From the IMG/VR virus record IMGVR_UViG_3300006736_000006: a DNA stretch of 64,000 bases, one strand, 5' to 3'. Below the pieces are notes generated by a model, which saw only the letters and a program-made list of their open reading frames with translations, did no database searches and was not told the DNA's origin. Both the position numbers and the translations under genes were made by a program. The DNA is from an uncultured virus (IMG/VR IMGVR_UViG_3300006736_000006) (Duplodnaviria; Heunggongvirae; Uroviricota; Caudoviricetes). Positions 6,390-51,623 of the stretch are shown in pieces (the stretch's first letter is position 1; every line of letters begins with the position of its first letter).

Positions 6390-9300
6390 TTAAACATCTA
6401 TCTTTTTCATCTTATATGTAGAAGTTGAGTATCCCCATGTTTCATTAGAGGATATCTCTGCCAGCCATATTGTATACAGCTCTGGAATTTGATTAAACTT
6501 ACTCCAGACACGAACCCACTTACTACTAGAATTATCGTCACAAACCCTCAGTCTATAAAATGTCTTTCCGTTCTTGGTCTTTTTTTCTATAATCTCCTCT
6601 ATGCAAAACCAAGCTATTCCTTTTTCATTTCCCTTAAGAGAACTTACAGGTTTGACTTGAGCAGCATTTATCTTTTTCATTATTGATGACGGGAATATTA
6701 TCTCTGAATCTACTCCTGACATCAAGTCAACCCCAAATGATATCTTAGACGATCTTTGCCAGTCAGGTAAATCATAAGACTCCCTTATCTTTTCAGGTAT
6801 GAAGTCTGGAACTGCTCCTGTTTCTTTCATTAGTTTTTTTGCAGCTGTCTTTGTGATTCCATGGCGGCCCTTCTTGAGAAGGTCATAGTTTCCAACTATA
6901 ATTTCGTGAAGCTGTCTGTGATTTTTAATCGTACCATTCGTCATCTCTTCTAAAGATCCAAAAGCCTCTACCTTACATAGAGAATCAAAACAAGTTTTAT
7001 TCATCTTAGATGGCTTCCACTTTCCGTCCTCTGTAAACAGCAGCTGATCGATGTCTTTGAATGGCCTCCGATCTAAAATTTCTTGCACAGCAGCAGATCC
7101 CACACCCTTGATAGCTGTTAACGGCGGAACAAACCCGCCCCTTTCTTCAGAAAATACCCACACATCAGAAGATGTATTAATATCTGCCTGAAGAATTTTA
7201 TACCCAATTGATTTAATTTCAGAAATAATTTTTCCAAATTTTGGAGAGCCGTTCCACGTCTGAAGACAGGTAGCTAGCCACTCCTTTTCATAATGTGTAT
7301 GCATCCATGCAGAATAATAAGAATCTATAGCATACGCTACTGCGTGACTCTTATTGAAACCATACCCAGAAAAAGCCTCAATTGTCTCATAAAGAGATGT
7401 TGCTTTTTCTCTATCCATGTTGCTGACGGTTACTGCTCCATCAATAAAGTCCTTTCTAAGTTTAATGCGCTCCCCTACCTTCTTATCATTCTGGTCAAGA
7501 GACTTCTTAACAAGTGTTTTTCTCATCTTGTCAGAAGCACCCTTGTCGAATCCGGATAGCTTCTGTGCTATAAGCATAAACTGTTCCTGATATATAACAA
7601 ATCCTCTACTTTCTGAAAGAATCTCCTCTAATACTGGATGATCATATTTAATAAGATTAAGATTTTGGCCCGCCTTTACATACTTCCTGTGAACATTAGC
7701 TGTGAGTGGGCCTGGTCTATAAATCGCTGTGATAGCAGACAGATCTTCAATACATCTAGGCTTGGCAGCTATGCAAAACTTTCTAGCGCCGGTGTTGGTA
7801 AATTGAAAAATTTGAACAAATCTACCTGCATGATAGATATACTCCCAGACCTTTTGATCATCTAGCTTGTGATATCTGCTGCTTAAATTCTCATCAAAAA
7901 ATTTATTGATTTGATCAAAATTAGGATTTTCAACTCCCTGACTTCTAAGAATTAGTCTTATTGTGTCCTCAACCATCTTCAGGGTAGCAAGTCCGAGAAA
8001 ATCAAACTTAAGAAATCCATTCTCTTCAAGATGTCTAAAGTTCATGCCCTCTGACCACGGTGTTTGTAGATCACCTCTCACCTTGATGACAGGCATGTTG
8101 TCTTCAAGATTTGGGCACACCAGCACGCCACCTGCATGTCTTCCAATACTTCTAATCTCCATGAATAGATTTTTAACATGCTCCTGTACTTTGGGATATT
8201 TTTTCATAAACTCCCTGTACGATTCACTATATTTTTCACAATCTTCATTTGTCAAAATATATGTCGACTTTTCCTCATGGTCTCCCATTGCGAGAGGCTG
8301 GACCTCTCTTTCAAGAGGATTTGTCATTGCGTTCACCTCATCAAAGGGAATACCATAGAACTTAGAGACATCCTTTATAAGAGACTTTAGTTTCAATGTA
8401 TTAAAGTTTGAAACTGGAATTACAGAATCCTCTCCAAAAAGCTCCCTAGAAACATCAATAAGAACATCTCTATCCGCTACATCGGAATCTATATCTGGCC
8501 ATGCAACCTTATGAAGACCTAAAAATCTCTCAAATAGTAGGCCATATTCAAGGGGATCTATGTGCGTGATACCCAAAATATAATTCACAAGGCTACCGCT
8601 TCCTGATCCTCTTCCAGGGCCCAATAGTGTTCTATTTCCCGCCTTTTCAAACACCTTTGTTAGAGTCAAAAAGTAGTTCTCGAATCCTAGCGCTTTAATC
8701 ACAGAGAGCTCTTCTGTGACTCTACTAATATACTCTTGATTTTCATGCAAGCCGTGCTCAATCATTCTCTTCTTGACAAGCTTTATAAGCTGATTAATTG
8801 CGCTAACGTCTGGTGTGCTGAAATCTGGAAGTTTTGCTGAAGAATCAAACCAGACCTCTTCACACATCTGCCACGCTATGTCATGAGTTCTTTCAATCGC
8901 ATCCTTAACAATCTCTTCACTGTCCTTATAGAAGTCATATTTTTCCCACTGATCCTTGAAGGCATCCCACATTTGGAATGAATTTTTAGGATAGAGTTCA
9001 CATTTTAAATCTTCTTTACTAGGAAGCTCTGGCATGTCATCACCTCTTTGACCCATTCTTCCAAGAAGTCTATATAGCTCTCTAGCCTCCCATAAGTCTG
9101 GATGACAATAATGTGAATCAGCTGTGGCTATGAGCGGAATGCCTGTTTTTTCAGATAGTCGAAGAAGACATCTATTTGTGAGATCCTGCGCGGGAAATCT
9201 ATTAAATTGAATTTCAAGAAAAAAGTTTTCTTTTCCTACAGCATCAATAAATCTGTCTGTGGAATTTTCAAGCTTTCTCATGACGCTGTTTAAAATAACG

Positions 9301-9980
9301 GGATCATCAACGAGCTCTGGAGCTAAATCTTCAAATGACTTATCTGGAAAGTGTTGAAAAATTAATCCCGACATCCTTCCGCCAACACATGCTGTGGATA
9401 CAACAAGCCCTTCACTATGCTCCTTGAGCATCTTAAAATCTATTCTAGGAAATCTGTAAAATCCATATTTAAATGATTTTTTTATGAGCTTGAATAAGTT
9501 TTGAAGGCCAGTAAAGTTTTTAGCTACGACAACCAGATGATACCTTCTCTTCCACTCGGGATAGCTTTTTCCTTTAGATGACTTTGACTCAGACTCATTC
9601 TCAATAATAAGCCCTTCTGTTTCTTCGCCAGAATCATCTGTTTTTAAACTCTTCTTATTTATCTTTTTAAGCCTGACATTTTCTCTATGTTCCTCATAGT
9701 CATCTCTCCACTCGCTTAATGAATCTACGAAGTAGAATTCACATCCATAGATGTGTCGATAGTCTACACCCTTATTTTTTAATTTTTTAGAATATGTGTG
9801 AGCATGAGCAGCTGAATTCATGTTACCATGATTTGTCAACGCAAATGCATTCATACCGTTCTCCAAGATAAAATCGATATGCTGGTTAGGATAACCTAGC
9901 CCATCGTATACACTTGAACCATCATGTGCATGCAATCCAACAAACTGTTTGGGAATAGAAAATTTATTAAAATCTGACAT
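6390..9980 (-). CDS. dnaE: DNA polymerase III alpha subunit (family C)
   Basis: PHP domain (LHAH..S, TNHG, GCEFY), GPGRGSGSGS, PDIDSD catalytic motif, KFDFLGL, YGFNKSHA and a C-terminal OB fold. Confidence 0.96.
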   Translation of the reverse strand: MSDFNKFSIPKQFVGLHAHDGSSVYDGLGYPNQHIDFILENGMNAFALTNHGNMNSAAHAHTYSKKLKNKGVDYRHIYGCEFYFVDSLSEWRDDYEEHRENVRLKKINKKSLKTDDSGEETEGLIIENESESKSSKGKSYPEWKRRYHLVVVAKNFTGLQNLFKLIKKSFKYGFYRFPRIDFKMLKEHSEGLVVSTACVGGRMSGLIFQHFPDKSFEDLAPELVDDPVILNSVMRKLENSTDRFIDAVGKENFFLEIQFNRFPAQDLTNRCLLRLSEKTGIPLIATADSHYCHPDLWEARELYRLLGRMGQRGDDMPELPSKEDLKCELYPKNSFQMWDAFKDQWEKYDFYKDSEEIVKDAIERTHDIAWQMCEEVWFDSSAKLPDFSTPDVSAINQLIKLVKKRMIEHGLHENQEYISRVTEELSVIKALGFENYFLTLTKVFEKAGNRTLLGPGRGSGSGSLVNYILGITHIDPLEYGLLFERFLGLHKVAWPDIDSDVADRDVLIDVSRELFGEDSVIPVSNFNTLKLKSLIKDVSKFYGIPFDEVNAMTNPLEREVQPLAMGDHEEKSTYILTNEDCEKYSESYREFMKKYPKVQEHVKNLFMEIRSIGRHAGGVLVCPNLEDNMPVIKVRGDLQTPWSEGMNFRHLEENGFLKFDFLGLATLKMVEDTIRLILRSQGVENPNFDQINKFFDENLSSRYHKLDDQKVWEYIYHAGRFVQIFQFTNTGARKFCIAAKPRCIEDLSAITAIYRPGPLTANVHRKYVKAGQNLNLIKYDHPVLEEILSESRGFVIYQEQFMLIAQKLSGFDKGASDKMRKTLVKKSLDQNDKKVGERIKLRKDFIDGAVTVSNMDREKATSLYETIEAFSGYGFNKSHAVAYAIDSYYSAWMHTHYEKEWLATCLQTWNGSPKFGKIISEIKSIGYKILQADINTSSDVWVFSEERGGFVPPLTAIKGVGSAAVQEILDRRPFKDIDQLLFTEDGKWKPSKMNKTCFDSLCKVEAFGSLEEMTNGTIKNHRQLHEIIVGNYDLLKKGRHGITKTAAKKLMKETGAVPDFIPEKIRESYDLPDWQRSSKISFGVDLMSGVDSEIIFPSSIMKKINAAQVKPVSSLKGNEKGIAWFCIEEIIEKKTKNGKTFYRLRVCDDNSSSKWVRVWSKFNQIPELYTIWLAEISSNETWGYSTSTYKMKKIDV

Positions 9981-10051: not shown

Positions 10052-11116
10052 TTAATCTTCTAGACAAACTGTTTCAAGAATAATACGCGTGACATTGTAT
10101 GGGTCACAATTAGAATTGGGACGACGATCTTCAAGGTACCCACATCCATCATTGTTCACATGTCTTGGTATTCTAATACTAGCTGTTCTATCTGAAACAC
10201 CCCATTTAAACTCTTTATACGAGCATGTTTCATGCAATCCTGTAAGCCTTAGCTCTAATCCATCGCCGTATGCATCTAAATGTTTCTGTATATTGTTTCC
10301 AATTTTTTTACATGCCTGCTCTATATATTTTATTCCGCCGGGAGCTCTCATCTTCCCTGTGCTAAAGTTAGTATGACATCCGGCTCCATTCCAGTCGCCC
10401 ATCATTGGCTTTGGATCAAATGTAACTGTTAGTCCATAAGCTTCTGATATCTTTAGCAGGAACCATCTAGAGATCCATAGCTGATCTGATACATCAACAG
10501 GACCCACACCTGGACCTCCTATTTGGTATTCCCACTGACCAGGCATTACTTCAGCATTTGTGCCCGTTATATCCAGTCCTGCCCATAGACACGCATTCAT
10601 ATGATCATCAGATATGTCACGACCAAATGATCTATCCCCGCCAGCACTACAGTAGTAAATTCCTTGAGGTTTTGGGTATCCGCCCTCTGGAAACCCAAGA
10701 GGTCTTCCACTCTTTATAACCGTGTATTCCTGTTCAATTCCAAACCACGATTCTGATTCGTGAGTTTTCCCGTCTATTTTCTCTAAATCACTTCTATTAT
10801 TCGTAATATGGGGACTACCATCTCCATTCAAAACCTCGCACAGTACAACGAATGCTAGGCTATCGCCTCTTACAGCGTCTGGAACCACTCTCACTGGTAA
10901 CAATAAGCAGTCAGAATCAGATCCGCTTGCCTGGCCGGTGGATGATCCATCAAACCCCCACTCAGGAAGCACCTTATGATCAAGATCATTTCTTAATTTT
11001 AAAAAATCAGACTCAGGTAGAGTATGAACCCTTACCTTAGACCTAAGACCCCATGGCTTGAATCCATCTATCCAGACATACTCAAGCTTTAGCTTTACTA
11101 GACCACTTTTTGTCAT
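10052..11116 (-). CDS. glnII: Glutamine synthetase type II
   Basis: EYVWIDG, WGFDGSSTGQA, FGIEQEY, NAEVMPGQWEYQ, DWNGAGCHTNFS and GYLEDRRP. The length of 354 aa is typical of GSII. Confidence 0.95.
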   Translation of the reverse strand: MTKSGLVKLKLEYVWIDGFKPWGLRSKVRVHTLPESDFLKLRNDLDHKVLPEWGFDGSSTGQASGSDSDCLLLPVRVVPDAVRGDSLAFVVLCEVLNGDGSPHITNNRSDLEKIDGKTHESESWFGIEQEYTVIKSGRPLGFPEGGYPKPQGIYYCSAGGDRSFGRDISDDHMNACLWAGLDITGTNAEVMPGQWEYQIGGPGVGPVDVSDQLWISRWFLLKISEAYGLTVTFDPKPMMGDWNGAGCHTNFSTGKMRAPGGIKYIEQACKKIGNNIQKHLDAYGDGLELRLTGLHETCSYKEFKWGVSDRTASIRIPRHVNNDGCGYLEDRRPNSNCDPYNVTRIILETVCLED

Positions 11117-13455: not shown

Positions 13456-14391
13456 CTATACAAGTGTTTTTATCATATCATTTAAATTTTTAGGATCTTC
13501 ATATACATGAATATTTTCTATATTCCACACTTCTGAATTATAAGAAAGCTTCGGAAGTAAAACAGGAATTCCATGCTTGGCATATTCTCCTGCATGCTTT
13601 GGAGAATCATCAACAGCACATACAACTGATCCAGAATCAAAATATTCAGACTGAGTTAACCACCTATACTTTTCGGCGCTAAAGTCAAGTCTGTGATAAT
13701 TCACTTGCAACTTTTCAAGCCAGAAATATGTATCATACCTACAAATGGGATTTTCATCAGGTCTAGCAGTTAAAATTTGAATCCAAAATCCATCATTTGA
13801 AAGAGAGTTAATTAGCTTTATCATTTCTTTATTAGCTTCAATGTCTCTAAGCCCTCTATGATCAATAAATCTTAAAAATACTTCTTCAGGATTATATCCT
13901 GCATTTTTAACTTCAGTCGTTGTATAATATTCAGATGAATTTTTATCAGCCTTGATACCATATTTTTCATCTAGCCAGTCAATAAAGCCTGATCTAAACT
14001 CTGAAATTACATCATCTAGGTCAAAAATAATAACTGGCTGACCATTCCACTTATTTTGTGTTGATTTATGTCTGGCGTGTAAAAACAAATCCTTATCCTC
14101 GAATGCACTCATAAACGTCTCACTTGAAATATCCCATAAATTCAGAATTGCAAGAAGATACCTGAAGGCGTCAACTGATTCATATGTTATTTTATTTAAG
14201 TCTACTTCCTTTTTAATATTTCTATGATCTTTAAAGTTAATTCCAGAAATAAGATCGCTAACCTCAGAATGCAGGGCCAATGATAAAGATTTTGTTATCT
14301 CTTCTTTTTCTTCTATAGAAAGACTACTATCATAAAATATTTTGTTAAAATCTTGTTGCCTTTCAAATAATCTCTTTAAATCAAAATTCAT
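13456..14391 (-). CDS. All-alpha dUTPase/MazG-like domain fused to a HAD 5'-nucleotidase domain
   Basis: N-terminus has SEVSDL..YESVDAFRY. C-terminus has IFDLDDVI, LTAR and VDDSP HAD motifs. Confidence 0.75.
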   Translation of the reverse strand: MNFDLKRLFERQQDFNKIFYDSSLSIEEKEEITKSLSLALHSEVSDLISGINFKDHRNIKKEVDLNKITYESVDAFRYLLAILNLWDISSETFMSAFEDKDLFLHARHKSTQNKWNGQPVIIFDLDDVISEFRSGFIDWLDEKYGIKADKNSSEYYTTTEVKNAGYNPEEVFLRFIDHRGLRDIEANKEMIKLINSLSNDGFWIQILTARPDENPICRYDTYFWLEKLQVNYHRLDFSAEKYRWLTQSEYFDSGSVVCAVDDSPKHAGEYAKHGIPVLLPKLSYNSEVWNIENIHVYEDPKNLNDMIKTLV

Positions 14392-14657
14392 TATTTATTC
14401 TTATCATGAATAATTGTAACATCACTTTGCTGATTTTTATTATAATTTTTAATTGACTCTATTAATGACGCTGTATCGCAGTTACTGAAAACCATATACC
14501 CAGATGAAATGGATAATCTTATTATTCCGCTATGACTGTCAAAGTTCAAAGACTCTATGATCTCGATTAGCGCTTTAATAGAATCAAATGTAAAAGCTTT
14601 ATCAGATTCCTTATGAAAAAAGGAGCCTGGCTTAATATCCGTTCCTAAGTCTTTCAT
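14391..14657 (-). CDS. Hypothetical protein (start uncertain)
   Basis: Fills the gap between two genes, with a stop/start overlap at 14391. Confidence 0.5.
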   Translation of the reverse strand: MKDLGTDIKPGSFFHKESDKAFTFDSIKALIEIIESLNFDSHSGIIRLSISSGYMVFSNCDTASLIESIKNYNKNQQSDVTIIHDKNK

Positions 14658-15096
14658 GAATAACTTCATCCTTTTTAAGATATGATTCATAAAGATCAGT
14701 TGAATTAAATCCTGCAAGAATTATAAGAGAGAAAAAGTAATTAAATGCATCAACAATTTCTTCTAAAAACTCATCTTTGTCAAATTCAATATTTTCTGTT
14801 GATCTATGGGGTTTCCAGTTTTTAAGATGCTGAAGAGCCTCAAACATCTCTTCAACGCCTCTTAGAGCTATATCTCTGCAATATTGCTGACTATTTTTAT
14901 TTGATAGATCAACCGGCCATTCCAGGTTATCATTCGGATATTTTTCAATAAGCGAATTCATAAATGACTCTCTTAACTCAAACATATGTCTTAGACTGTC
15001 TTCATTATCTTCTTCACTGGAGCCCGAAAAAGATTTATTATCTTCTTCGACAGCACTGTTTTTAATAAATGATTCTCCCTTGACAGCGATTCCCAT
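14632..15096 (-). CDS. Dimeric dUTPase / all-alpha NTP pyrophosphatase
   Basis: EEMFE...KNWKPH...EEIVDAFNY...Y..K......R...GY pattern. Confidence 0.82.
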   Translation of the reverse strand: MGIAVKGESFIKNSAVEEDNKSFSGSSEEDNEDSLRHMFELRESFMNSLIEKYPNDNLEWPVDLSNKNSQQYCRDIALRGVEEMFEALQHLKNWKPHRSTENIEFDKDEFLEEIVDAFNYFFSLIILAGFNSTDLYESYLKKDEVIHERLRNGY

Positions 15097-16991: not shown

Positions 16992-17417
16992 CTAATAAAA
17001 CACCCGCTTAAGAAATTCGTGATAATCATTAAGTGCATGATCAGACGGCATAACAGATCTCCACTCTCCCAAGCAGAATATCCTATAGGCATCAGATCCA
17101 TACTTTCCGATCCCATAGAGAACATCTGGACTATATCTCCAATCCTTATTGATGTAATCATCAGACATTCTAATAAGAGACTTAGATCGTCTTTCTGATA
17201 GCCCTAACGGCTTTATCATATCTCTTATTTCACTAGGATCTGCACTTGATGCAGATACTGGATCTGGATATTTCTCAAAAAATTTCCACATATACGGTTC
17301 TGCATCTACCCTTCTAGTAAGATTGCAAAATATACACGCGACAAATATTTTCCATGGATCTTGCCATAGATGCTCTTGAATTAAATTAAACGGTGATCTC
17401 GGCGGCGACCATTTCAT
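16992..17417 (-). CDS. HhH-GPD DNA glycosylase, MBD4-like
   Basis: W.PPRSPFNLIQEHLWQDPWK...IFCN, LYGIGKYGSDAYRIF and DHALNDYH closely follow the MBD4 catalytic domain. Confidence 0.85.
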   Translation of the reverse strand: MKWSPPRSPFNLIQEHLWQDPWKIFVACIFCNLTRRVDAEPYMWKFFEKYPDPVSASSADPSEIRDMIKPLGLSERRSKSLIRMSDDYINKDWRYSPDVLYGIGKYGSDAYRIFCLGEWRSVMPSDHALNDYHEFLKRVFY

Positions 17418-17435
17418 CTATCCTCCATTTTAATA

Positions 17436-17463
17436 AGGATACATTGTAAAAATGAAATTTACA
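17436..17463 (-). promoter_or_regulatory. Putative sigma70-like promoter
   Basis: TGTAAA-N16-TATCCT followed by a GGAGG RBS. Confidence 0.45.
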
Positions 17464-17468
17464 TTCGT

Positions 17469-17756
17469 CTATCTTAGGTCTCTAAACCAGAGATCTTCAT
17501 ATTTTTCAACTCCGCAAACACAACTATTTGGTGTGACCTCTCTAACTACACCAAAATCAAGCATTCCATTTTTAATCTCTATAGAAAACAAACACGCAGA
17601 CTGACATGACTCTATGGTTAGTGGATCTATCTTTTTATTAAGAATAACATATGATACGCTATAACAAACAATAGCGACCATTAAGACCTTACATAATGAA
17701 CCTATCAAAAACCGCTGTACACGTTCGCTAGAATGATCATCCGTTACGTCTTTCAT
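17469..17756 (-). CDS. Small membrane-anchored Cys-containing hypothetical protein
   Basis: One hydrophobic helix, plus CQSAC and CVC. Confidence 0.55.
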   Translation of the reverse strand: MKDVTDDHSSERVQRFLIGSLCKVLMVAIVCYSVSYVILNKKIDPLTIESCQSACLFSIEIKNGMLDFGVVREVTPNSCVCGVEKYEDLWFRDLR

Positions 17757-18123
17757 TATTTATATTTTCCTTGATGTACTTGATAAAGTCCGCTATGTCT
17801 CTAGGAACTTTCACGTATGTTTCATCTCTTTTAGAATACATCCACTCGTAACCGATTACTGAATCAATTGCATCGTTCTTTTCTTTTTGTTTATTTTTCT
17901 TAAATTCTTGAAAATTAACAACCCCATCAGGATAAATTTCCTCATACTCTACATCTACAAAATCTACATCTATTGAATTACTCTTAATAATTGACAATTC
18001 TTTTATATCTGTCTTGCTATCTTTGATCGCGCGAGGCTTTTCGATAAATCTTCCCATTGTAAAAAAGATGCACGAAAAAATACATAAAAATGAAATTAAA
18101 AATAGAATGTCCATCTCTATCAT
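17737..18123 (-). CDS. Membrane-anchored hypothetical protein
   Basis: N-terminal TM helix after MIEMD. The longer start in the ORF track overlaps the upstream gene. Confidence 0.55.
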   Translation of the reverse strand: MIEMDILFLISFLCIFSCIFFTMGRFIEKPRAIKDSKTDIKELSIIKSNSIDVDFVDVEYEEIYPDGVVNFQEFKKNKQKEKNDAIDSVIGYEWMYSKRDETYVKVPRDIADFIKYIKENINNERRNG

Positions 18124-18127
18124 ATTA

Positions 18128-18445
18128 CTATCTTCCTTCAATAATAGGTATTTCGCTTTTAAATAAATCAAATCCAATTGACATATGAATAGCAACAACA
18201 CAAAGATAAGCCATAAAGACTGGCAGAACAAAAAGCTTAGCTGTCTTAGCCATTTTAAGTCTCCATATTAAAAGAACGCACAGTGAAACAATCGTTAGCT
18301 TAGCTATGATAAAGAATGAAGACCCCACCCCTAAAAGGCTAGCCATAAGCGGGTTGATCTCACTAGCTATACCAGTCGACACCCAAATTGCTGTTGCTAC
18401 GGCATCTATGAGATTCATTATTAGAATTCCCGATAAAAGATGCAC
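18128..18445 (-). CDS. Small multi-pass membrane protein (DUF5658-like)
   Basis: N..DA..T....G...E.NPLM pattern and three hydrophobic segments. Confidence 0.6.
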   Translation of the reverse strand: MHLLSGILIMNLIDAVATAIWVSTGIASEINPLMASLLGVGSSFFIIAKLTIVSLCVLLIWRLKMAKTAKLFVLPVFMAYLCVVAIHMSIGFDLFKSEIPIIEGR

Positions 18446-18538
18446 GATCTTTATTTTTCTTAGCTGCTGTTTAAATGCCCTAAGTATGCTATAGTCCCCT
18501 TATTATAACTATAATAAGGATTGTAAAATTTCTAAAGA

Positions 18539-19768
18539 TTAAAACTGATCTTCTTCTGTGGATTCGTTTAAAGCTAAAGTAGAAGATTCACCTTCACTAA
18601 TTATCTCTCTAACTGCATCAAAGTATCCTGTTCCAACCTCTCTCTGGTGCTTTGTTGCTGTATACCCAAAGTGCTCAGACATCATCTCATTATCTTGGAG
18701 CTCTACATATGCACTCATCGCATAATCCTTATATTTTCTAGATAATTCAAACATAGAGTGATTAAGGGAATGAAACCCTGCGAGTGTTACAAATTGAAAC
18801 TTATATCCCATCTTATTCAACTCATCTTGAAATATTGATATAGTAACTTCGTCAAGATTCTTTCTCCAGTTAAACGATGGAGAGCAATTATATGCAAGTA
18901 GTTTTCCAGGATATTTTTCATGAATAGCATTAGCAAACTTTCTAGCTTCATCAAGATCTGGTGTGGAAGTTTCACACCAAAGAAGATCAGCATACGGAGC
19001 GTATGCTAGACCTCTAGATATAGCCTGATCTATTCCGCCAGTAATTCTATAGAAACCCTCTCGTGTTCTTTCTCCTGACATAAATTGATGATCATATGGG
19101 TCTATATCAGATGTCATAAGCTTAGCACTATTTGCATCAGTTCTAGCTATAAGCACTGTAGAAACACCCATGACATCAGATGCGAGCCTGGCAGCTTTTA
19201 AAGTTTTAATAAATTGAGATGTCGGAACAAGAACTTTTCCTCCAAGATGGCCGCACTTTTTTTCAGAGCTTAGCTGATCCTCAAAATGAACTCCGGCGGC
19301 ACCTGACTCTATCATTGCTTTCATTAACTCATATGCGTTTAAGTGACCTCCAAATCCAGCCTCTGCGTCAGCTATAATTGGAACCATCCAATCACAGCTT
19401 CTAACTCCTTCAACGCTTTCAATCTGATCAGCCCTTTGAAGAGCCTGATTGATTCTCTTTACCACGCTTGGAACACTATTGGCAGGATATAAACTCTGAT
19501 CTGGATACATATGACCCGACAGATTAGCATCTGCTGCGACCTGCCACCCAGAAAGATAAATAGCCTTAAGCCCAGCTCGAACTTGTTGAACAGCCTGGTT
19601 ACCAGTCAGCGCTCCTAATGCAGAAACACTTTCTTTCGAAAGCAAAAGATCCCATAATTTTTCTGATCCCTCCTTTGCCAAAGAGTACTCTATTCTTACT
19701 CTACCCCTAAGCTTATCGACATCTGACTGACTCCACGTTCTTATTGTGTTTTTCTTATCATTCATCAT
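18539..19768 (-). CDS. aceA: Isocitrate lyase
   Basis: [33 protein letters not shown] active site, [11 protein letters not shown] and [11 protein letters not shown]. Confidence 0.97.
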
Positions 19769-19777
19769 TAAAGTTTC

Positions 19778-21328
19778 TCACCTTATATGTTCATAAGCAT
19801 CTATTGTTAAAAATTTAGGTAATTCATCTAAAAATACCATTTCTCTAAATAAACTCACAGATTCATCAAATTTTCCGCTATTAAATCTATCTGATCCAAC
19901 TTCTCTCTCTATGTTCTCGAGGACTTCTGAAATCTTTCTATTGATCATGTGTACATCTATTATCTCACCAGACTCTACAGAGCAATTATGTTTTCTCCAT
20001 TGCCACACCTGTGTTCTTGAAATCTCTGCTGTAGCTGCATCTTCCATTAAATTATAAAGAGGAACACATCCATTTCCTCTTAGCCAAGATTCAATATATT
20101 GAATCCCAACACTTAGGTTATGATACAAACCTTTCTCAGATATAGATCCTAATGGCACCCTAAGCAGATCTTCCCTAGAGGCCTTGTGTCCTTTTGAATT
20201 ATTTATCTGATTTGAATTTGGCATATACGAATCAAAAATTTCCTTTGCCACCTGTATTAGTCCTGGGTGAGCGACCCATGTTCCATCATGCCCTAAGAGA
20301 ACTTCCCTAAGTTTGTCCTCTCTAACCTTTTTGATAGCTGCACTATTTCCATCTTCATCGTTTTTAATTGGAATCTGCGCAGCCATTCCTCCCATAGCAT
20401 GTGCACCCCTTTTGTGACATGTATGAACTAAAAGCTCAGAATAAGATTTCATACAGTGAGACGTCATGGTGACCTGATCTCTATCAGGAAAGATTCTTTC
20501 GTTATGATTTCTAACTGTTTTTATGAAGCTAAAAATATAATCCCATCTTCCACAGTTAAGACCCGCAGAGTGATCTTTAAGCTCATAAAGAATCTCATCC
20601 ATTTGAAATGCTGCAGGAAGAGTTTCAATTAGAACTGTTGCCTTAATTGATTTTCTAGGAATATTTAGTCTATCCTGTGTCCAGTTAAATACGTCATTCC
20701 ACCACCCAGCTTCAGAATGATGTTCTAGTTTAGGAAGATAGAAAAATGGACCTCTTTTTCTTTCCAAAAGAATTTTAGCATTATGAAACATAAATAGCCC
20801 AAAATCAAAAAGTGAAGCTGGAACTTGATTACCGTCTACAAGAAAGTGAGATTCTTTTAAATGAAGCCCTCTAGGGCGGACAAATAAAACAGCATGATCT
20901 GAATTAAGTCTATATGTTCCCTTTGTTGGATGTTCATAAGATATTGTTTCTCTTACAGCATCCTTCAAATTTAACTGACCATTTATGATATTTTCCCACG
21001 TTGGAGAAAGTGAATCTTCGAAGTCTGCCATAAAAACATTTGCACCAGAATTTAATGCATTTATAACCATTTTTCTATCTGTTGGACCGGTTATCTCAAC
21101 TCTTCTATCAAGTAAGCAACTAGGAATCTCAGATATTTTCCACTTCTCGTCTCTTGTATCTGCTGTATCAGGTGAGAAGTCCGGAAGATATCCTACATCA
21201 TAAAAATTTTGTCTTCCATCCCTGCTGCGTAAAAGGTCACCCAGTTGATCCCTAAATTCTCTTATAAGATCATGTAAAAAAATCTCCGCTTCATCAGTCA
21301 AGACATCTTCAATTATTTCACTTATCAT
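19778..21328 (-). CDS. aceB: Malate synthase A
   Basis: DRRVEITGP, ADFEDS, RPRG, YLPKLE, GLNCGRWDYIFS and LMEDAATAEISR. Confidence 0.97.
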   Translation of the reverse strand: MISEIIEDVLTDEAEIFLHDLIREFRDQLGDLLRSRDGRQNFYDVGYLPDFSPDTADTRDEKWKISEIPSCLLDRRVEITGPTDRKMVINALNSGANVFMADFEDSLSPTWENIINGQLNLKDAVRETISYEHPTKGTYRLNSDHAVLFVRPRGLHLKESHFLVDGNQVPASLFDFGLFMFHNAKILLERKRGPFFYLPKLEHHSEAGWWNDVFNWTQDRLNIPRKSIKATVLIETLPAAFQMDEILYELKDHSAGLNCGRWDYIFSFIKTVRNHNERIFPDRDQVTMTSHCMKSYSELLVHTCHKRGAHAMGGMAAQIPIKNDEDGNSAAIKKVREDKLREVLLGHDGTWVAHPGLIQVAKEIFDSYMPNSNQINNSKGHKASREDLLRVPLGSISEKGLYHNLSVGIQYIESWLRGNGCVPLYNLMEDAATAEISRTQVWQWRKHNCSVESGEIIDVHMINRKISEVLENIEREVGSDRFNSGKFDESVSLFREMVFLDELPKFLTIDAYEHIR

Positions 21329-21333
21329 TTATT

Positions 21334-22293
21334 TTATCTTTCCCTATCTGGGCAATAATTAACCAGTGTTTTTTTCACATCTTCTAACATAGTCTTTAAA
21401 TCTAGCCCGGCGCAATCAATTTTTGTTTTAACAAAATTATAGTGATTAACAAACCCATTATATTTACCCTTTACGCATTGATCGTAAACTGTTGTACACA
21501 GCTCTCCGTCACTATTTAATGGACACACAAGTGGAATTCCAATTCCAGTATGAATTGCCTTCCAAAGAGACCTTAAAGCTTCAAGCTGAACTGGATAAAA
21601 ATCTAAAAATGGTTTGAGTTTTCTTCCATGAACGTGGCCGTTCTCTTGAATAGGTCGTTCACCATGTCCGTGTTTAACATACCAGTCTTGATATTTTGTG
21701 TAATAAGCATTAGAAATCTCTACTCCAATACCTTTTGCATTTCCTCCGACACCGTTGCTAATTCCCGCATGCCATGCCTTGTGCTGAGTATCTAGCATTT
21801 GAAAAATTGTCCCATCGTTATCGATGAGAAAGTGAACAGATATTCCCCGCCTATTTAAGACCTTGGCACAGGAACCTGCGCTTAGACAGACATCCCAGTG
21901 ATTTACAAACATCGTGGGCTTTCTATCAGGCTTTCCTGCGTAATTTGTATAACACCCATCTTTCGATTTATATCCGCCCGACTCATCCCACAAAATAACC
22001 TTATCCCACTCGATAGGGATAAAATGGCCATTATGAACTATATGCTTATCCCCCATCTTGTAACTCTTCTTAAGCGGAAGAGCGTCCATCCAGTCAGTTA
22101 TGTTTGTCTCTCTTTCTGTCCATACCCGGCGATATGTAGCCGGACCAACCAATCCATCAGATTTAAGGCCCATATTTTTTTGCCATTTTTGAACAGCTTT
22201 AACCAAAAGAAAATCAAATTCTTCACAGCCGAACCAGGAAGGATCCCATCCAAGGCTATCTGCACTTGATTTATTATAAAAATCCTTGTCCAT
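21334..22293 (-). CDS. Endolysin-like N-acetylmuramoyl-L-alanine amidase with peptidoglycan-binding domain
   Basis: AVQKWQ..GL..DGLVGPAT PG-binding motif. Amidase_2 motifs SVHFLIDNDG, AWHAG, IGVE and NH...K.DC. Confidence 0.85.
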   Translation of the reverse strand: MDKDFYNKSSADSLGWDPSWFGCEEFDFLLVKAVQKWQKNMGLKSDGLVGPATYRRVWTERETNITDWMDALPLKKSYKMGDKHIVHNGHFIPIEWDKVILWDESGGYKSKDGCYTNYAGKPDRKPTMFVNHWDVCLSAGSCAKVLNRRGISVHFLIDNDGTIFQMLDTQHKAWHAGISNGVGGNAKGIGVEISNAYYTKYQDWYVKHGHGERPIQENGHVHGRKLKPFLDFYPVQLEALRSLWKAIHTGIGIPLVCPLNSDGELCTTVYDQCVKGKYNGFVNHYNFVKTKIDCAGLDLKTMLEDVKKTLVNYCPDRER

Positions 22294-22306
22294 TAATGCT
22301 CTCCAT

Positions 22307-22909
22307 TCATTCGAAGTCTATATCTACTGATATGTTTATATTCAATTTTGGAACCCTAATCTGGTTTGCCAACCCATGCTTTTTACACTCTGTTGCATCT
22401 AAAAACCAGTCAGCATGCCCCTTTTTATGAACTAATTTTAAAAAATAATTGTCTCTTTTTCTACAATTTCTAGCCATCATAGTATAAACTTTTTGATTTA
22501 ATCTCTCTGTTTCTTCAGCTGAGGCTTTTATCTCTTCTACCTTTCCTCGCTCCATAGATGATACATCATGAATCATTACTGTGGAGTCTGGATCCATAAA
22601 TCGAAGACCCTGTTTACCAAAACTAAATAAAATTGCTCCGCAAGACATTGCCTTTCCTTCAACAATTGTGGCGACAGGAATATCAGAATTATTGATTGCG
22701 CTTATCATGGACATAAGTGAATAAACTTGTCCTCCATATGAATCAATAATGACAGGAATTACAGACTGACCCGTATTATGAGCTAGTGCAATGTGCTCTT
22801 GAAATTCCTTTGCAGATTTTTCATCAAATTTATTAACAGTTATGATAACTGGATTCTTTCTTAATTCGACCTCTTTAATAAGAGGAGATATTTTACTAAC
22901 CCACTTCAT
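22307..22909 (-). CDS. clpP: ClpP-like serine protease
   Basis: IDSYGG, GKAMSCGA (catalytic Ser), VMIHD (His) and DWFL.A.E...GL. The likely start is MKWVSK at 22909. Confidence 0.85.
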   Translation of the reverse strand: MKWVSKISPLIKEVELRKNPVIITVNKFDEKSAKEFQEHIALAHNTGQSVIPVIIDSYGGQVYSLMSMISAINNSDIPVATIVEGKAMSCGAILFSFGKQGLRFMDPDSTVMIHDVSSMERGKVEEIKASAEETERLNQKVYTMMARNCRKRDNYFLKLVHKKGHADWFLDATECKKHGLANQIRVPKLNINISVDIDFE

Positions 22910-22917
22910 TATACCAC

Positions 22918-23000
22918 CTAGAAAGCAATAGACTCGCCGCACTCGCACGTTCGTGTCTTGGATTTTCAAAATGATCTAAAACTTTATCTGAGTACACCAT
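22918..23000 (-). pseudogene. iscU'-'iscA deletion remnant
   Basis: AAGGAG RBS, then MVYSDKVLDHFENPR (IscU N-terminus), then TRTCECGESIAF* in another frame (IscA/HesB C-terminus). Confidence 0.8.
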
Positions 23001-23020: not shown

Positions 23021-25483
23021 TTATCCACACTTTCCAAAACCACACGCTGTGCATGTTACACAGCCCTCCTGATATCTTAGTGTATCTTCTGCACTACAAT
23101 TTCCACATGACGTCTTTCCAGGGACTGTTCCATCTTTTATGTAATTTTTAAGAACTCTAGCAATCACCTTTGAGAAGGAAAACATATCCATCTCTACATC
23201 TTTTTGAAGCTGTTCAACCACATAGTTGATCCTCGCTCCATGTCGAAGGGCGAGGGATATCGTCCTTGTATAGCCAGCATGATTAGGATTATCAAAGACT
23301 GACACTATGTCCTTGATCAAAATCTCTTCACCATTCTTTCCAATCTGGAGATCATATCTAGAATTCTTGGTCTTGTAATGATGTTTTATGATAGTTCCTT
23401 TCCTATATTTCCTGGGGATCTCTATGTATTTTTGTAAGCCTCCCATCACTTCATAGGGGCTACCATCCATCAATCCTACGAGAATTGTCCACGCCTGACC
23501 TTTAATTGTTGCATGATGGATTTGACATGGCAATTCTCCAGGCCTGACAGGAGCATCATGAGTTTTAAAGGCATTCTTTTCTGATCTGACTAATACTCCG
23601 GTTCTGCTTCCCTCTCTATAGACGGTTACTCCCTTGCATCCTAGCCTCCAGCCTTGCATATAGATGTCCTTAATTGTGTCAATAGATGTCTCAGAAGGAA
23701 CATTTGTTGTATTTGATATTGCGTGGCAGACCCACTTCTGTGCTGCTGCTTGCAGCTTAACCTTAGACACCCAGTCTATATCATCTGTTGTAGACTTCCA
23801 ATAGGGAGAATCTTCTACCTCAGTTTTTCCTGTTGCGTCCATCCATTTTTTAAATCCATGATGATAAACATCATATTCCTGCCACCGGTCTCCAACATCA
23901 TCTATAAAATCTACTCTGCCACCTGCATCACTTTCAGTAAGCTTCTTTCTTCTAGTATACTTCAAGAGATAAGCTGGCTCAATCCCAGACGTTGTTTGCG
24001 TCAATACGGAAACTGACCCTGCCGGTGCTGTTGTCGTGAGAGCTATATTTCTTCTTCCATATTTCTCATTCATATCTAGAAGCTTTGGATTTTCTTCCCA
24101 TATTCTTCTTAAAAATGGATGATATGTTTCCTTTCTAAAATCGTGAACTGGAAATGCTCCCCTCTCTTTTGCAAGAATACAAGAGGACATATATGAATTT
24201 ATACAAAGAGTCTTATAGATCTTTTCAACAATATCAATGGATGCTTTAGATCCGTATCTTACATTAAGTGCGGCAAGCGTATCACCAACTGAGGTCACAC
24301 CCAATCCTGTTCTTCTTCCGCGCCGGGCTCTATCTTTTATCTGTTTCCACATATTTTTTTCATTTAGCTTAACTATGTCAGGCTCAGGATCAGAGTTAAT
24401 TTTTTCAAGAATTTTATCTATCTGCTCTATTTCAAGATCAATCATATCATCCATTAGTCTCTGTGCTTTTTGCACAACCTCAGACATTTTCTTAAAATTA
24501 AATGCTGCACTATCACAAAATTCATCATCAACAAATGAAGAAAGATTTATCAACATCAGCCTACATGAATCATATGGAGATAAAATTATTTCTCCACATG
24601 GATTTGTAGAAACAGACCCAAATCCTTCATTTTCATAAATGTCAGAAGGTGTAAGCTGTTTTGCATTATCCCAGAAGAGAATTCCCGGCTCTGCAGAAGC
24701 ATGAGCTGACTCAATTATATCATTCCACAATTCTTTAGCTTTAGCTCTATCCTTTATCTTAGGTGTCTCTTCATCAACTGGCCATCTTAATTCTACATCT
24801 TCATCATCTACAACAGCATTCATAAACTCATCTGTTATTTTAATGGATATATTAGCACCTGTTACTCTTGTTAGATCTCTCTTAATCTTTATAAAGTCTC
24901 TAATTTGAGGATGGTGAACAGAGATAGTAAGCATAAGTGCTCCGCGACGTCCGCCCTGAGCCACCTCCCTGCAAGAATTTGAAAATCTATCCATAAAAAC
25001 TTCAATTCCATCTGTAGTCCTCGCACAATTTCCTGTTGACTGTCCTTTTGGTCTAATTGTCGATATATCAAATCCAACTCCTCCTCTACGTTTAGCTATT
25101 TGAACAAGCTCTTGATCGGTTTTTAGAATTCCACCATATGAGTCATGCGGAGGCTCTATCACAAAGCAATTAGATAAAGATTGAATTTGAAAATTATTTC
25201 CAATTCCCGCCATGGGACTTCCCTGAGGAACTATGTATTTGAAATCTTTTAGAAGAGAATATATCTCATCTTCGCTCATTGAATTTTCATACTTTCTTTC
25301 AATTCTAGAAAATTCCTTTGCTATTCTCTTGTGCATGTCATCGGGAGTTAATTCATAAAAATTTCCATCTCTATCACAAAGCGCATATTTTGTAGCGAAT
25401 ACATTTGCAGCGAGCTCATCTCCATCAAAATACTTTACGCTTTCATTAAAAACTTCATCGAAATTATACACGCTCGCTCCCAT
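23021..25483 (-). CDS. nrdJ: Adenosylcobalamin-dependent (class II) ribonucleotide reductase
   Basis: SLSNCFV, RRGA, TNPCGE, APAGS and KGVTVYR, with a C-terminal CxxC...EGC..C..CG zinc-ribbon. No beta-subunit gene nearby. Confidence 0.9.
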   Translation of the reverse strand: MGASVYNFDEVFNESVKYFDGDELAANVFATKYALCDRDGNFYELTPDDMHKRIAKEFSRIERKYENSMSEDEIYSLLKDFKYIVPQGSPMAGIGNNFQIQSLSNCFVIEPPHDSYGGILKTDQELVQIAKRRGGVGFDISTIRPKGQSTGNCARTTDGIEVFMDRFSNSCREVAQGGRRGALMLTISVHHPQIRDFIKIKRDLTRVTGANISIKITDEFMNAVVDDEDVELRWPVDEETPKIKDRAKAKELWNDIIESAHASAEPGILFWDNAKQLTPSDIYENEGFGSVSTNPCGEIILSPYDSCRLMLINLSSFVDDEFCDSAAFNFKKMSEVVQKAQRLMDDMIDLEIEQIDKILEKINSDPEPDIVKLNEKNMWKQIKDRARRGRRTGLGVTSVGDTLAALNVRYGSKASIDIVEKIYKTLCINSYMSSCILAKERGAFPVHDFRKETYHPFLRRIWEENPKLLDMNEKYGRRNIALTTTAPAGSVSVLTQTTSGIEPAYLLKYTRRKKLTESDAGGRVDFIDDVGDRWQEYDVYHHGFKKWMDATGKTEVEDSPYWKSTTDDIDWVSKVKLQAAAQKWVCHAISNTTNVPSETSIDTIKDIYMQGWRLGCKGVTVYREGSRTGVLVRSEKNAFKTHDAPVRPGELPCQIHHATIKGQAWTILVGLMDGSPYEVMGGLQKYIEIPRKYRKGTIIKHHYKTKNSRYDLQIGKNGEEILIKDIVSVFDNPNHAGYTRTISLALRHGARINYVVEQLQKDVEMDMFSFSKVIARVLKNYIKDGTVPGKTSCGNCSAEDTLRYQEGCVTCTACGFGKCG

Positions 25484-32406: not shown

Positions 32407-33609
32407 TTAACAAATATTTTCTATTGTTACAGGAAAATTTTTATTTAATTTTGGCACAGGAATACCATCCTTGATAATATCTGCTATTTTATCTACACCT
32501 GACTCAACATCTAAAATTATAGCATCATGTATAACAAATACCGGAATAGCACTTATACCTTCTTCATCAATTCTATTAATTAGCCACTTGAATGACTGGA
32601 GTGAGACATCCACACCTGTCGACTGTAAATAGTGGTTCACAAATGCGTCTCCTGATTTTATCCTTCTTCCATAAAAATTTTCAATAAATCCACTTCTCTT
32701 ATACTGATCTTTAAGTCTAGATTCTAAAAATGGAATGTCGAAATATGCTTTAACATCTGACAGCACATTTTGTGCGTCGATTGTATCAGGTAGTCTTTTA
32801 GATAGTGCCCATGCTGACATACCGTATAGACAGCTAATTGTAGCTATCTTTGCTTGATTTCTTGTTACCTCTCCCATAAGAACGTTGTCTCTAACCCAGC
32901 TATATATGTCATATGGTATCTCACTTTCAGACACAGAGAGAGCTATTCTGGGTTCAAGAGAAACTATATCTATTTGAATTAGTCTTCCCCCGGGATATCT
33001 TGACTTAAAGATACTACGATTGCTTCTCTTTAGCGTAAGAATATTTGGCCCACTTTTTATTGTTAGCCTTCCCGTTATTGATCCAGATTGACAATAGTTT
33101 ACCGTAGGAGAAAATCCGTCATCAGAATAAAATTTTTGAAGTTCAGACTTATTTGAAATTAACTTATCCTTCATTAAATTTTGAATAATATCCTTATCTA
33201 TAGCAGATCGTTTGAGTCTCAATAGAAGCTCTCTGTTGCTTACAAACTCATTCATATAGTAACCATCGATCTCATCTCTAGTGATCATCCAGAGCTGATC
33301 TAGAGCATCTAGCAGATATCTTTTAAACTGATCTGACGGTATCACATCCACCCATGGTATTCCGATCATATCTTCTTTGTTGTTTTTTAATATTTCTCTC
33401 CACACTGATCCATGAGGAGTTTTTAAAAAATCAAATACATCGGCACCAATCGCCTCAGATATAGATCTAAGATCTCTTATAGCCGGAATATCATCAAGAA
33501 TCCATGCATCATCTGGAATATTTGAGACCCACTGAAACCTCTCGCGCTCATCGCTATTAACAAGATGTTTTTGTGTGCCAAGTATTCTAGATGAAATTGC
33601 TATCTTCAC
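32407..33609 (-). CDS. Compact family A DNA polymerase-like protein
   Basis: TGRL...PNI, motif A DIVSLEPRI, motif B RNQAK..ISCLYG, N..LQS and motif C IHDAI. No recognisable exonuclease domain. Confidence 0.82.
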   Translation of the reverse strand: MKIAISSRILGTQKHLVNSDERERFQWVSNIPDDAWILDDIPAIRDLRSISEAIGADVFDFLKTPHGSVWREILKNNKEDMIGIPWVDVIPSDQFKRYLLDALDQLWMITRDEIDGYYMNEFVSNRELLLRLKRSAIDKDIIQNLMKDKLISNKSELQKFYSDDGFSPTVNYCQSGSITGRLTIKSGPNILTLKRSNRSIFKSRYPGGRLIQIDIVSLEPRIALSVSESEIPYDIYSWVRDNVLMGEVTRNQAKIATISCLYGMSAWALSKRLPDTIDAQNVLSDVKAYFDIPFLESRLKDQYKRSGFIENFYGRRIKSGDAFVNHYLQSTGVDVSLQSFKWLINRIDEEGISAIPVFVIHDAIILDVESGVDKIADIIKDGIPVPKLNKNFPVTIENIC

Positions 33610-43866: not shown

Positions 43867-44658
43867 CCCGGCGCCGATCGGAAGAGAGACACGAGATTCC
43901 TGATTGCATTGAGCGCAGTTCATCCATACAGACATATCAATTCCTGGCTCATTATTCTCGATAAATGTTCTTAACTTTCTCGAGTCTAGGGCAGGCATGT
44001 CTTTGACAAATGCGTTTATCTTGTTTCTATCACTTACTCCATCAATTGAAACAATTAGCTGCTCAAGTCTAGAAGTGACAAGACTATCAATTTTTGCGTC
44101 AGGCATCATCTTTCTGCGGCGCTCAGCCGTCAGATTCATCTCTTCCTCATCAGCCCCCCTTAGGAATCTGAAATGGACCTCTTTCCCTGTGACGGGAAGA
44201 GTAAATAAGAATATATTCTCTCCTTCTCTAATGGGATCTAAAGACAACCTTTTTATTTCAAGCCCAGATAGGTCAAAATCTTGGTTGCCTTTCTTTCCAC
44301 ATTCTGGACAGCTAACATCTGCCTTATATGCAGTCCCATACCCGGTGATTCTCACCGAAACCATTAGAGCATTTCTATCTCCAATTAGCATATCTCTAAC
44401 GTCAACATTATCATCAACTAGACAAGACTCTAAAAGTGTAGTTATCACTATTCCCTGCTGAATAAGCGCTCGAGATGAAAGAATATCCTCCTCTCTAGCT
44501 GTCATAGACTTAACATGCAGAATATTTCTATTATGAAGTGCTGATCCCTGTGGATAAACCTTACCCTCAGAGGGAACAGGAACTGCTTCAACAGGCACAT
44601 CCCATCCAAAATCATCCTTCATTACACTGTGTTTTTGAATACTTGGTTGGTCTGACAA
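43846..44658 (-). CDS. Baseplate-hub/tail assembly chaperone (T4 gp26-like)
   Basis: PSEG..Y, MTAREEDIL, GDRNA...R..GYG, two CxxC motifs and C-terminal FFWP. Lies between the tube and tape measure genes. Confidence 0.78.
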   Translation of the reverse strand: MSDQPSIQKHSVMKDDFGWDVPVEAVPVPSEGKVYPQGSALHNRNILHVKSMTAREEDILSSRALIQQGIVITTLLESCLVDDNVDVRDMLIGDRNALMVSVRITGYGTAYKADVSCPECGKKGNQDFDLSGLEIKRLSLDPIREGENIFLFTLPVTGKEVHFRFLRGADEEEMNLTAERRRKMMPDAKIDSLVTSRLEQLIVSIDGVSDRNKINAFVKDMPALDSRKLRTFIENNEPGIDMSVWMNCAQCNQESRVSLPIGAGFFWPSD

Positions 44659-44715
44659 AACTTCCTCTTTCTTTATTCTAAAATAATACTAGGATATGTG
44701 TAAAGGTAAATTAAA

Positions 44716-44746
44716 ATAAAAAGCCCTCCTGATTCAGGAGGGCTTT
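44716..44746 (-). terminator. Rho-independent terminator after tail tube gene
   Basis: AAAGCCCTCCTG-3 nt-CAGGAGGGCTTT followed by a T-rich tract on the minus strand. Confidence 0.88.
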
Positions 44747-44767
44747 AAATAAATAAAATTTTTAAAA

Positions 44768-45259
44768 TCAGTATTGTAATACGGCGTTATCGTACCGTAG
44801 TGTGATGGATATCTCTACAGGGTCTGTGTCATTTTCATATGTAAGGTTATTAAATGTTGCGTCCTGTAAAAACGCTCCCTTTATATCCCAGAGCTCCACC
44901 ACTGTTCCAATGGGATCAAGAAGCTTGAGCTGACAGTCACGCTTATAAAAGTCTGCATACCCAGCACGTCCAGACACAGACTCATAGTGTGTTCTAATCC
45001 ACTCCATGACTTGTTGAGCTCCCGAGGGTGCGATCGGATCATACAGTGTTAGCGCGATCGGATCAAATGTGAGCCTCCCTGATACATAACGCTTCGCGTT
45101 GATCCAGGGAATTTCCTTTTGAGCCAGAGTAAATTTAGGTCTGCTAGTTGTTTTCATCAAAAAGGCATCAATGCCCTCTATCGCAAAAATCCACCTAAAC
45201 TGCCTTTTGGGCTCAAATTTATTAGGTAACATATCGGTGACGGATAACGTCTCAGCCAT
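44768..45259 (-). CDS. Tail tube protein (gp19-like)
   Basis: FEPKRQFRW, YDPIAPSGAQQVMEW, YKRD..L..LDP.G..VE.W and LRYD. Directly after the sheath. Confidence 0.9.
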   Translation of the reverse strand: MAETLSVTDMLPNKFEPKRQFRWIFAIEGIDAFLMKTTSRPKFTLAQKEIPWINAKRYVSGRLTFDPIALTLYDPIAPSGAQQVMEWIRTHYESVSGRAGYADFYKRDCQLKLLDPIGTVVELWDIKGAFLQDATFNNLTYENDTDPVEISITLRYDNAVLQY

Positions 45260-45316
45260 TTTTTCTATCTCCTAAAGAGTTTATCATTCTTAAGTATCTA
45301 CCTTGCAAAATTTATT

Positions 45317-51573: not shown

Positions 51574-51623
51574 CAACAAATCTCCTGTGCTTGTCTCTAC
51601 AGTTATAACTATCGCTCAAACGA

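Follow-up and report, generated by a model that had tools for sequence, protein, structure and literature searches.

A glyoxylate shunt gene pair as an optional cassette in very large marine phages

The aceB-aceA gene pair and its products

The DNA analyzed here, a stretch of 64,000 nucleotides from an uncultured tailed virus (IMG/VR record IMGVR_UViG_3300006736_000006), carries two adjacent genes for the enzymes of the glyoxylate shunt; the whole stretch is called the window below. The first gene, aceB (19778..21328, minus strand), codes for a malate synthase A of 516 residues, and the second, aceA (18539..19768, minus strand), for an isocitrate lyase of 409 residues. They are separated by 9 bases, and aceB starts 5 bases past the stop codon of a 319-codon open reading frame (ORF; 21334-22293, minus strand) for an endolysin-like amidase with Amidase_2 and PG_binding_1 domains in Pfam searches. 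This layout is exactly that described in an earlier reading of the window, hereafter the original prediction. A Shine-Dalgarno-like AAGGTGA (19778..19784, minus strand) takes in the stop codon of aceB and the sense codon before it, and its end is 9 bases from the ATG of aceA. Together with the tight spacing, this resembles what is usually seen in translationally coupled operons, and translation of aceA is probably coupled to that of aceB. Past aceA, a spacer of 93 bases leads to a gene for a small membrane-like DUF5658 protein (18128..18445, minus strand; PF18902, 56.8 bits). Reading of this spacer also revealed a perfect 9-bp AT-rich hairpin with a 4-base loop (18498..18519, minus strand), whose 3′ arm contains a TATAAT-like string and which has no T-run behind it; it was not among the sites given by our terminator scan.

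Both proteins were assigned to families by scoring the whole protein against the curated equivalog cut-offs of NCBIfam. AceB scored 743.8 bits with the malate synthase A model TIGR01344 (cut-off, 594.5) and only 26-29 bits with malate synthase G models, which identifies it as the A isoform. It has a three-domain build, its N-terminal, TIM-barrel, and C-terminal domains matching PF20656, PF01274 (profile positions 1-247 of 248), and PF20659, all above their cut-offs, and it aligned end to end with the solved structures PDB 3cux (635.6 bits) and 3cuz, the malate synthase A of Escherichia coli (571.7 bits). AceA scored 730.8 bits with the isocitrate lyase model NF011645 (cut-off, 562), belongs to the Pfam ICL family PF00463, and stayed far below the cut-offs of the methylisocitrate lyase models (101.6 versus 354.4 bits and 86 versus 353 bits). 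Its residues 9-409 align with 23-423 of the 433-residue chain of PDB 7cmx (632.9 bits), and its residues 8-409 with 34-435 of PDB 6lrp, the alignment reaching its own last residue. The N terminus of AceA is some 15-30 residues shorter than those of bacterial enzymes, and the C-terminal tail, which in isocitrate lyases closes the neighboring active site, is present. The matches are so strong that chance is no issue for either assignment. Neither protein matched any PHROGs family at E ≤ 1e-5.

The catalytic residues are conserved. AceA carries KKCGH, the isocitrate lyase catalytic loop with the active-site cysteine, at residues 170-174, identical to that of solved lyases. In AceB, GRWDY spans residues 260-264 and EDAAT residues 429-433. 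The catalytic arginine and aspartate of E. coli malate synthase A and its magnesium-liganding glutamate and aspartate are R166, E250, D278, and D447; counted along the 3cuz alignment, their counterparts in AceB are R151, E235, D263, and D430, and all four are invariant across an alignment of 16 viral homologues. Among viral AceA homologues, KKCGH, DAEAGFGG, and ARTDA were found in 24 of 24, and NCGRWDY, VRPRG, and FMADFEDS in 26 of 26 viral AceB homologues. MEDAATAEISR is kept in 23 of these 26, a single substitution occurring in two and one contig being truncated. With the family cut-offs exceeded and KKCGH, RWDY, and EDAAT present in the translations, the predicted full-length malate synthase A and isocitrate lyase were confirmed: as judged from sequence, both shunt genes are full length and intact and keep their catalytic motifs.

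Both genes are under strong purifying selection in viral genomes. By the Nei-Gojobori method, dN/dS was 0.036-0.073 for aceA and 0.058-0.113 for aceB in three pairs with dS values of 0.26-1.19; seven of the 11 pairs were set aside as saturated, dS being above 1.7 or undefined. The near-identical pair of contigs L006 and L007 (dS of 0.096 for aceA and 0.01 for aceB) gave values of 0.06 and 0.18, respectively, based on very few changes.

Genomic setting, distribution, and descent

The pair sits within a block of co-directional replication and nucleotide-metabolism genes. Ahead of aceB, this block comprises genes for a gp32-like single-stranded DNA-binding protein (SSB), RecA/UvsX, a 5′-3′ exonuclease, DnaB, a ribonucleotide reductase (RNR; 23021..25483, minus strand; assigned by Pfam), which marks the backbone of the lineage, a ClpP-like protease (22307..22969, minus strand; Pfam CLP_protease, 94.4 bits), which in most relatives lies directly before aceB, and the amidase. 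The pair and the DUF5658 gene are followed by genes for an HhH-GPD glycosylase, an RNase T-like exonuclease, a metallophosphatase, and dUTPase_2-like proteins, and then for NT5C, ThyX, a nucleoside deoxyribosyltransferase, a type II glutamine synthetase (GSII), a DnaE-type polymerase, a thymidine kinase, and a dCMP deaminase. Viral hallmarks thus flank the pair on both sides, with the gp23-type major capsid protein, prohead protease, tail sheath, tail tube, and T4-type baseplate protein on one and the DnaE polymerase, ThyX, and thymidine kinase on the other. The GC content per kilobase is 0.35-0.39 in the pair and 0.33-0.41 in its neighbors, in agreement with the original prediction that strand and base composition are those of the phage genes. 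Its claim that no host genes or mobile-element marks lie beside the pair also stood: the flanks are phage genes, and the scanned ORFs of the window gave no match to an integrase or transposase family. The pair lies within a viral genome, is kept in relatives, and is under purifying selection, as expected of phage auxiliary metabolic genes, which would also be expressed during infection. A scan of the window for regulatory signals gave 40 promoter-like sites (34.9 ± 6.0 expected) and 9 terminator-like sites (4.6 ± 2.2 expected), and none of these usefully frames aceB-aceA.

The complete pair had been predicted to be very rare in tailed phages, and among the phage records of GenBank it is. Four records of that collection were matched by AceB, none of them a real phage genome (two Salmonella contigs and two short unannotated fragments). 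AceA matched nine, among which Phage C48C1 is the sole phage genome with a full-length copy; the rest are two Acinetobacter-phage-labelled contigs with a distant partial aceA, bacterial contigs, and short unannotated fragments or prpB. The prediction does not hold for metagenomic phages. A single-protein scan of IMG/VR yielded 26 loci, and aceA was present at all 24 that had enough contig, directly downstream in 23 and upstream in one. A profile scan yielded 65 malate synthase loci, 48 of which have a bacterial-type aceA, i.e., one at least 61% identical to that of the window, within 3 kb of aceB and on the same strand; several of the IMG/VR rows repeat a sequence recovered from more than one sample. 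In 42 of these 48 pairs aceB comes first, and in six aceA does. At 10 of the 65 loci, six of them named GVMAG, a distant synthase is followed by a lyase-like gene of 26-30% identity. Two loci end too soon to be scored, and aceA was not found at the remaining five (three GVMAG loci, L170, and L171). Contigs carrying aceBA reach 332 kb, and the CheckV estimates for three carriers (69.9 kb, 26%; 201.6 kb, 73%; 267 kb, 78%) correspond to genomes of ~270-340 kb.

Close relatives with and without the pair were compared in a scan anchored on the RNR gene. It covered 61 loci, which were scored if the RNR was at least 65% identical and at least 3.9 kb lay behind it. Among the 26 contigs that could be scored, aceBA was present in nine and not at this position in 17; these are contigs and not lineages, some being duplicates, and in the 17, aceBA could sit elsewhere in the genome. 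In the RNR tree, all 11 aceBA-positive rows fall within one clade of 15 rows with an SH-aLRT support of 100. The clade also includes the negative row L196, and the presence of aceBA requires two changes on the tree. In L207 and L208, the genes for ClpP, the amidase, DUF5658, and HhH-GPD are in the same order as in the window, and a 147-aa ORF occupies the place of aceB-aceA. The pair is therefore an optional cassette that marks one RNR-backbone subclade of very large marine phages. The position of the amidase gene also varies among relatives: it precedes aceB in the window, L003, L004, and L015, directly follows aceA in L012 and L013, and lies ~1-1.5 kb past aceA in L005, L007, L016, and L017, with aceB and aceA together throughout.

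Phylogenetic analyses separated the viral genes from their bacterial counterparts. In an AceB tree of 25 viral and 78 bacterial rows, all viral rows lie on one side of a branch with an SH-aLRT support of 100; the bacterial rows came from the 80 best loci found in GTDB species genomes by a scan limited to peptide patterns, and three short rows were dropped. In the AceA tree, from which seven rows were left out for being too short, too long, or too distant, the 23 IMG/VR rows form one clade (support of 91, not starred), outside which the lyase of Phage C48C1 stands apart on a long branch. This viral clade is sister to a Myxococcota/Planctomycetota group with an SH-aLRT support of 93. We do not read these phyla as the donor of aceA, since the only bacterial aceA rows in the tree are those beside an aceB match. 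The best 80 of the 593 confirmed bacterial loci are 51-61% identical and come from many phyla, and a search of 5.8 billion proteins returned matches at 92% (its own cluster), then 74%, then a continuum of 57-65%. No cellular homologue above ~61% identity was found in this protein search or in the bacterial sample, which was limited by peptide patterns, and for these reasons no donor can be named. The presence of the pair at 48 of 65 IMG/VR loci, the viral clades in the trees, and the low dN/dS values also count against an assembly chimera.

A tentative explanation for this pattern, which we consider somewhat less likely than not, is that viral aceB and aceA represent an old, virus-adapted lineage moving as one cassette among large marine phages. 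It is suggested by the separation of the viral clades from the sampled bacteria, the ceiling of ~61% identity to cellular homologues, and the confinement of the cassette to one RNR subclade, together with the occurrence of the same viral gene clade at other genome positions, in both orders, in more distant phages. In that case, the cassette may bring the shunt to hosts that lack it or run it outside the control of host IclR and AceK, and it would then be a metabolic switch owned by the phage instead of a host gene borrowed recently.

Possible role in the infected cell

The pair itself is not new. Sequences of aceA and aceB were reported in Pacific Ocean viromes and taken to represent a glyoxylate shunt in viruses (Hurwitz et al. 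2013, PMC4053976). The same two genes in marine viral-fraction DNA were found there by gene-family detection without genome context, whereas the window places them in a phage genome with defined neighbors. An aceBA operon was then described in the complete 179-kb marine viral genome TARA_ERS478052_N000008 and called the first such case (Nishimura et al. 2017, PMC5332604). By description, to which this comparison is limited, that genome resembles the window in having malate synthase beside isocitrate lyase, T4-like structural genes, and an uncultured marine origin with no host assigned. A 2025 preprint on huge phages counted 98 genes for the lyase and 22 for the synthase, the two lying side by side in 20 genomes, with synthase-bearing phages from marine, soil, and plant-related sources and glutamine synthetase in 247 huge phages (bioRxiv 10.1101/2025.02.27.640493). 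The adjacent pair and the estimated genome sizes of the window's relatives are similar, again compared by description only; a phylogeny and selection analysis is presented here for the window pair and does not appear in the covered part of that preprint. Isocitrate lyase was also reported in viruses predicted to infect Pelagibacter and Woeseiales (2023, PMC10721903). To this record the window adds a clean, independently assembled example, long-lived viral clades under strong purifying selection, and an optional cassette marking one subclade, its presence or absence at one slot in close relatives being a natural contrast for probing what it does.

Cellular and other viral versions of the system differ in their surroundings. 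As in the E. coli aceBAK operon, aceB precedes aceA on the same strand with a short gap, and the enzyme families are the same, AceA scoring 555.7 bits with PDB 1igw, the E. coli isocitrate lyase. Unlike in E. coli, the pair is flanked by phage genes, a search of five related records found no aceK, and no IclR-type regulator was found among the window ORFs scanned. Phage C48C1 (OQ984149.1, labelled Kyanoviridae), a marine-type T4-like phage, has an intact lyase that is 56% identical and located near DnaB and endolysin genes; unlike the window, it has no malate synthase, and its lyase belongs to a separate branch. In this deposited complete genome, the full-length lyase gene (44175-45416) is annotated only as a hypothetical protein. 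Giant-virus metagenome-assembled genomes (MAGs) such as those among the 10 IMG/VR loci mentioned above also encode both shunt steps, but their lyase is of eukaryote type, and their synthases and lyases are 39-50% and 26-30% identical, respectively, to the window proteins.

Isocitrate lyase converts isocitrate to succinate and glyoxylate, and malate synthase joins glyoxylate with acetyl-CoA to form malate; these are the sole shunt-specific steps. On balance, we consider it somewhat probable that aceB-aceA functions as an auxiliary metabolic operon of a large marine T4-like myophage with a lytic lifestyle. This favored reading is based on the scores above the equivalog cut-offs, the conserved motifs, the low dN/dS, the tight operon, the setting in the replication block, and the conserved adjacency of the two genes. 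The pair would most likely be coexpressed with the surrounding replication and nucleotide-metabolism genes. The phage lyase would split host isocitrate, and the phage malate synthase A would condense the glyoxylate with acetyl-CoA to malate, imposing on the infected cell a glyoxylate bypass free of host control. Carbon otherwise lost as CO2 would be retained as C4 acids, and oxaloacetate could then yield aspartate, and phosphoenolpyruvate (PEP) sugars, to feed phage nucleotide and protein synthesis. In this scheme, the intact genes, their residence in a phage, their conservation, and purifying selection are shown, and catalytic activity, timing of expression, and metabolic pay-off are inferred. 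Whether two-carbon units end up as CO2 or as biomass depends on the glyoxylate shunt, and if phages impose it on marine bacteria during infection, carbon-use efficiency would change in a large proportion of cells, an idea in print since 2013.

Several observations weigh against a working operon of this kind. The cassette is dispensable, 17 of the 26 scorable close relatives having no aceBA at this slot. Flux through the shunt normally also needs throttling of isocitrate dehydrogenase, and AceK (PF06315) was found in none of five related records, a weak absence since the records are incomplete, whereas the E. coli control matched. A phage-side supply of acetyl-CoA is likewise missing from these incomplete records: AMP-binding acyl- or acetyl-CoA synthetase, citrate synthase, and acyl-CoA dehydrogenase each occur in none of the five. 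Since none of these partners was found there, only the two shunt-specific steps appear to be supplied by the phage, and the predicted channeling of acetyl-CoA from lipids or acetate was not supported. No RNA run was among the 21 runs listed as containing the stretch, which is neutral with respect to expression. Finally, the sequence does not name the host, nor, consequently, does it tell whether that host already has a shunt; no tRNA that might serve as a clue was found within the 64-kb window.

The window also encodes a glutamine synthetase, as predicted. The gene (10052..11116, minus strand) lies between those for the nucleoside deoxyribosyltransferase and the DnaE polymerase, and its product is of type II, scoring 379.5 bits with PDB 4bax and 451.6 bits with the NCBIfam GlnII model, just below the cut-off of 500. 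The further proposal that GSII and aceBA form one carbon-plus-nitrogen module found no support, as the two are 7.4 kb apart and a glutamine synthetase gene was present in two of the four aceBA-bearing records searched, all incomplete. In one of these relatives, the 267-kb G004, it is ~95 kb from aceBA.

The same enzymes might instead pay off in redox or stress relief and not in carbon gain, which we consider unlikely but the best of the alternatives. By skipping two NADH-yielding, CO2-releasing steps, the shunt would lower the respiratory load and oxidative stress or help the cell to cope with iron limitation; bacteria use the glyoxylate shunt under both of the latter conditions. The intact and conserved genes fit this as well as they fit the anaplerotic reading, nothing in the sequence separating the two, and the lack of carbon-supply partner genes in the five related records is in its favor. 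However, the neighbors are nucleotide-synthesis genes and not stress genes.

The authors who described TARA_ERS478052_N000008 favored a lysogenic, host-benefit role for its genes (PMC5332604), and by the same argument the window pair could be conversion genes that boost a lysogenic or pseudolysogenic host. Conversion genes are often optional, as the cassette is among relatives. On the other hand, the pair lies in the middle of the replication block rather than at an end of the genome or at an attachment site, and tyrosine integrase and serine recombinase (resolvase) were each found in none of five related records totalling ~714 kb, all of which are fragments, so that this is no proof. The lack of recombinases fits a lytic lifestyle for the phage and lends no support to the lysogenic reading, and a conversion role is accordingly improbable in our view.

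We attach equally little weight to a role in glyoxylate handling, in which glyoxylate arising from glycolate or from the breakdown of purines would be assimilated by malate synthase and the lyase would supply succinate or glyoxylate, e.g., for glycine. Related marine phages with a lyase and no synthase exist, as exemplified by Phage C48C1 with aceA only, indicating that the steps are separable. Nevertheless, the adjacency of the genes at 48 loci, in both orders, points to selection on the two steps together.

An assembly chimera or host contamination, suggested solely by the bacterial type of the genes, was excluded by independent contigs and conserved synteny and is extremely improbable. The junction downstream of aceA is bridged by the Logan contigs X5 and X6 (18138-18723, 0 differences) and X12 (17400-18836, 48 differences), and that between the amidase gene and aceB by X5 (21116-21703), X6 (21116-22402), and X12 (21116-21694). 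These junction contigs come from runs outside the four marked as a possible source of the window; four such runs were compared with it. For the 9-base spacer between aceB and aceA, the listed run pieces do not have 31 letters on both sides, and this junction rests on assembled IMG/VR contigs. The separate assemblies L002 and L004 show the same gene order: L002, of 69.9 kb, has a single-residue difference in the RNR and another in the amidase, and L004, which belongs to a different IMG/VR dataset, shows 100% identity in ClpP, the amidase, and the first 280 residues of AceB but only 84-94% from SSB to RNR. Diverged relatives, with aceB 51-64% identical, also hold the pair among phage genes, and neither the GC content, which equals that of the flanks, nor the lack of any bacterial homologue above 61% identity is what contamination would produce. 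The stretch is contained wholly or partly in 20 public DNA runs from 18 studies, and 16 of the runs contain half or more of the words sampled from it. The nearest record, G001, shows no difference from the window, but as it starts at 23946, inside the RNR gene, it is uninformative on aceBA.

Other features of the phage genome

The structural genes of the window show several peculiarities. The major capsid gene (57366-59339, minus strand) codes for 657 residues, of which 378-647 are the best-scoring Gp23 stretch. Its matches to known phages come in two pieces covering 53-65% of the protein, the remainder having no detected homology. By capsid, the nearest cultured phage is Flavobacterium phage immuto (47% identity over 58% of the protein), followed by Microcystis phage Mel-JY01 and Rhodothermus phage RM378; all are too distant for a host to be named from them. 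Two adjacent tail-sheath paralogues are encoded at 45317-48355 (1,012 aa) and 48391-51579 (1,062 aa), both on the minus strand; sheath PHROGs match mainly their C-terminal parts, and in the relative L019 one place matches both paralogues.

Among the replication genes, that for a DnaE-type polymerase III alpha subunit (6390-9980, minus strand; 1,196 aa), with PHP, alpha, finger, and HHH domains, occurs here in a phage with T4-like structural genes, and its product is only 26-30% identical to any GenBank phage polymerase. A family-A polymerase-like ORF of 400 aa is also present (32407-33609, minus strand). The dUTPase_2 profile is split between two minus-strand ORFs separated by a 108-aa ORF: positions 1-90 are fused to an NT5C 5′-nucleotidase domain in one ORF (13456-14391), and positions 108-162 are found in a separate ORF of 154 aa (14632-15096).

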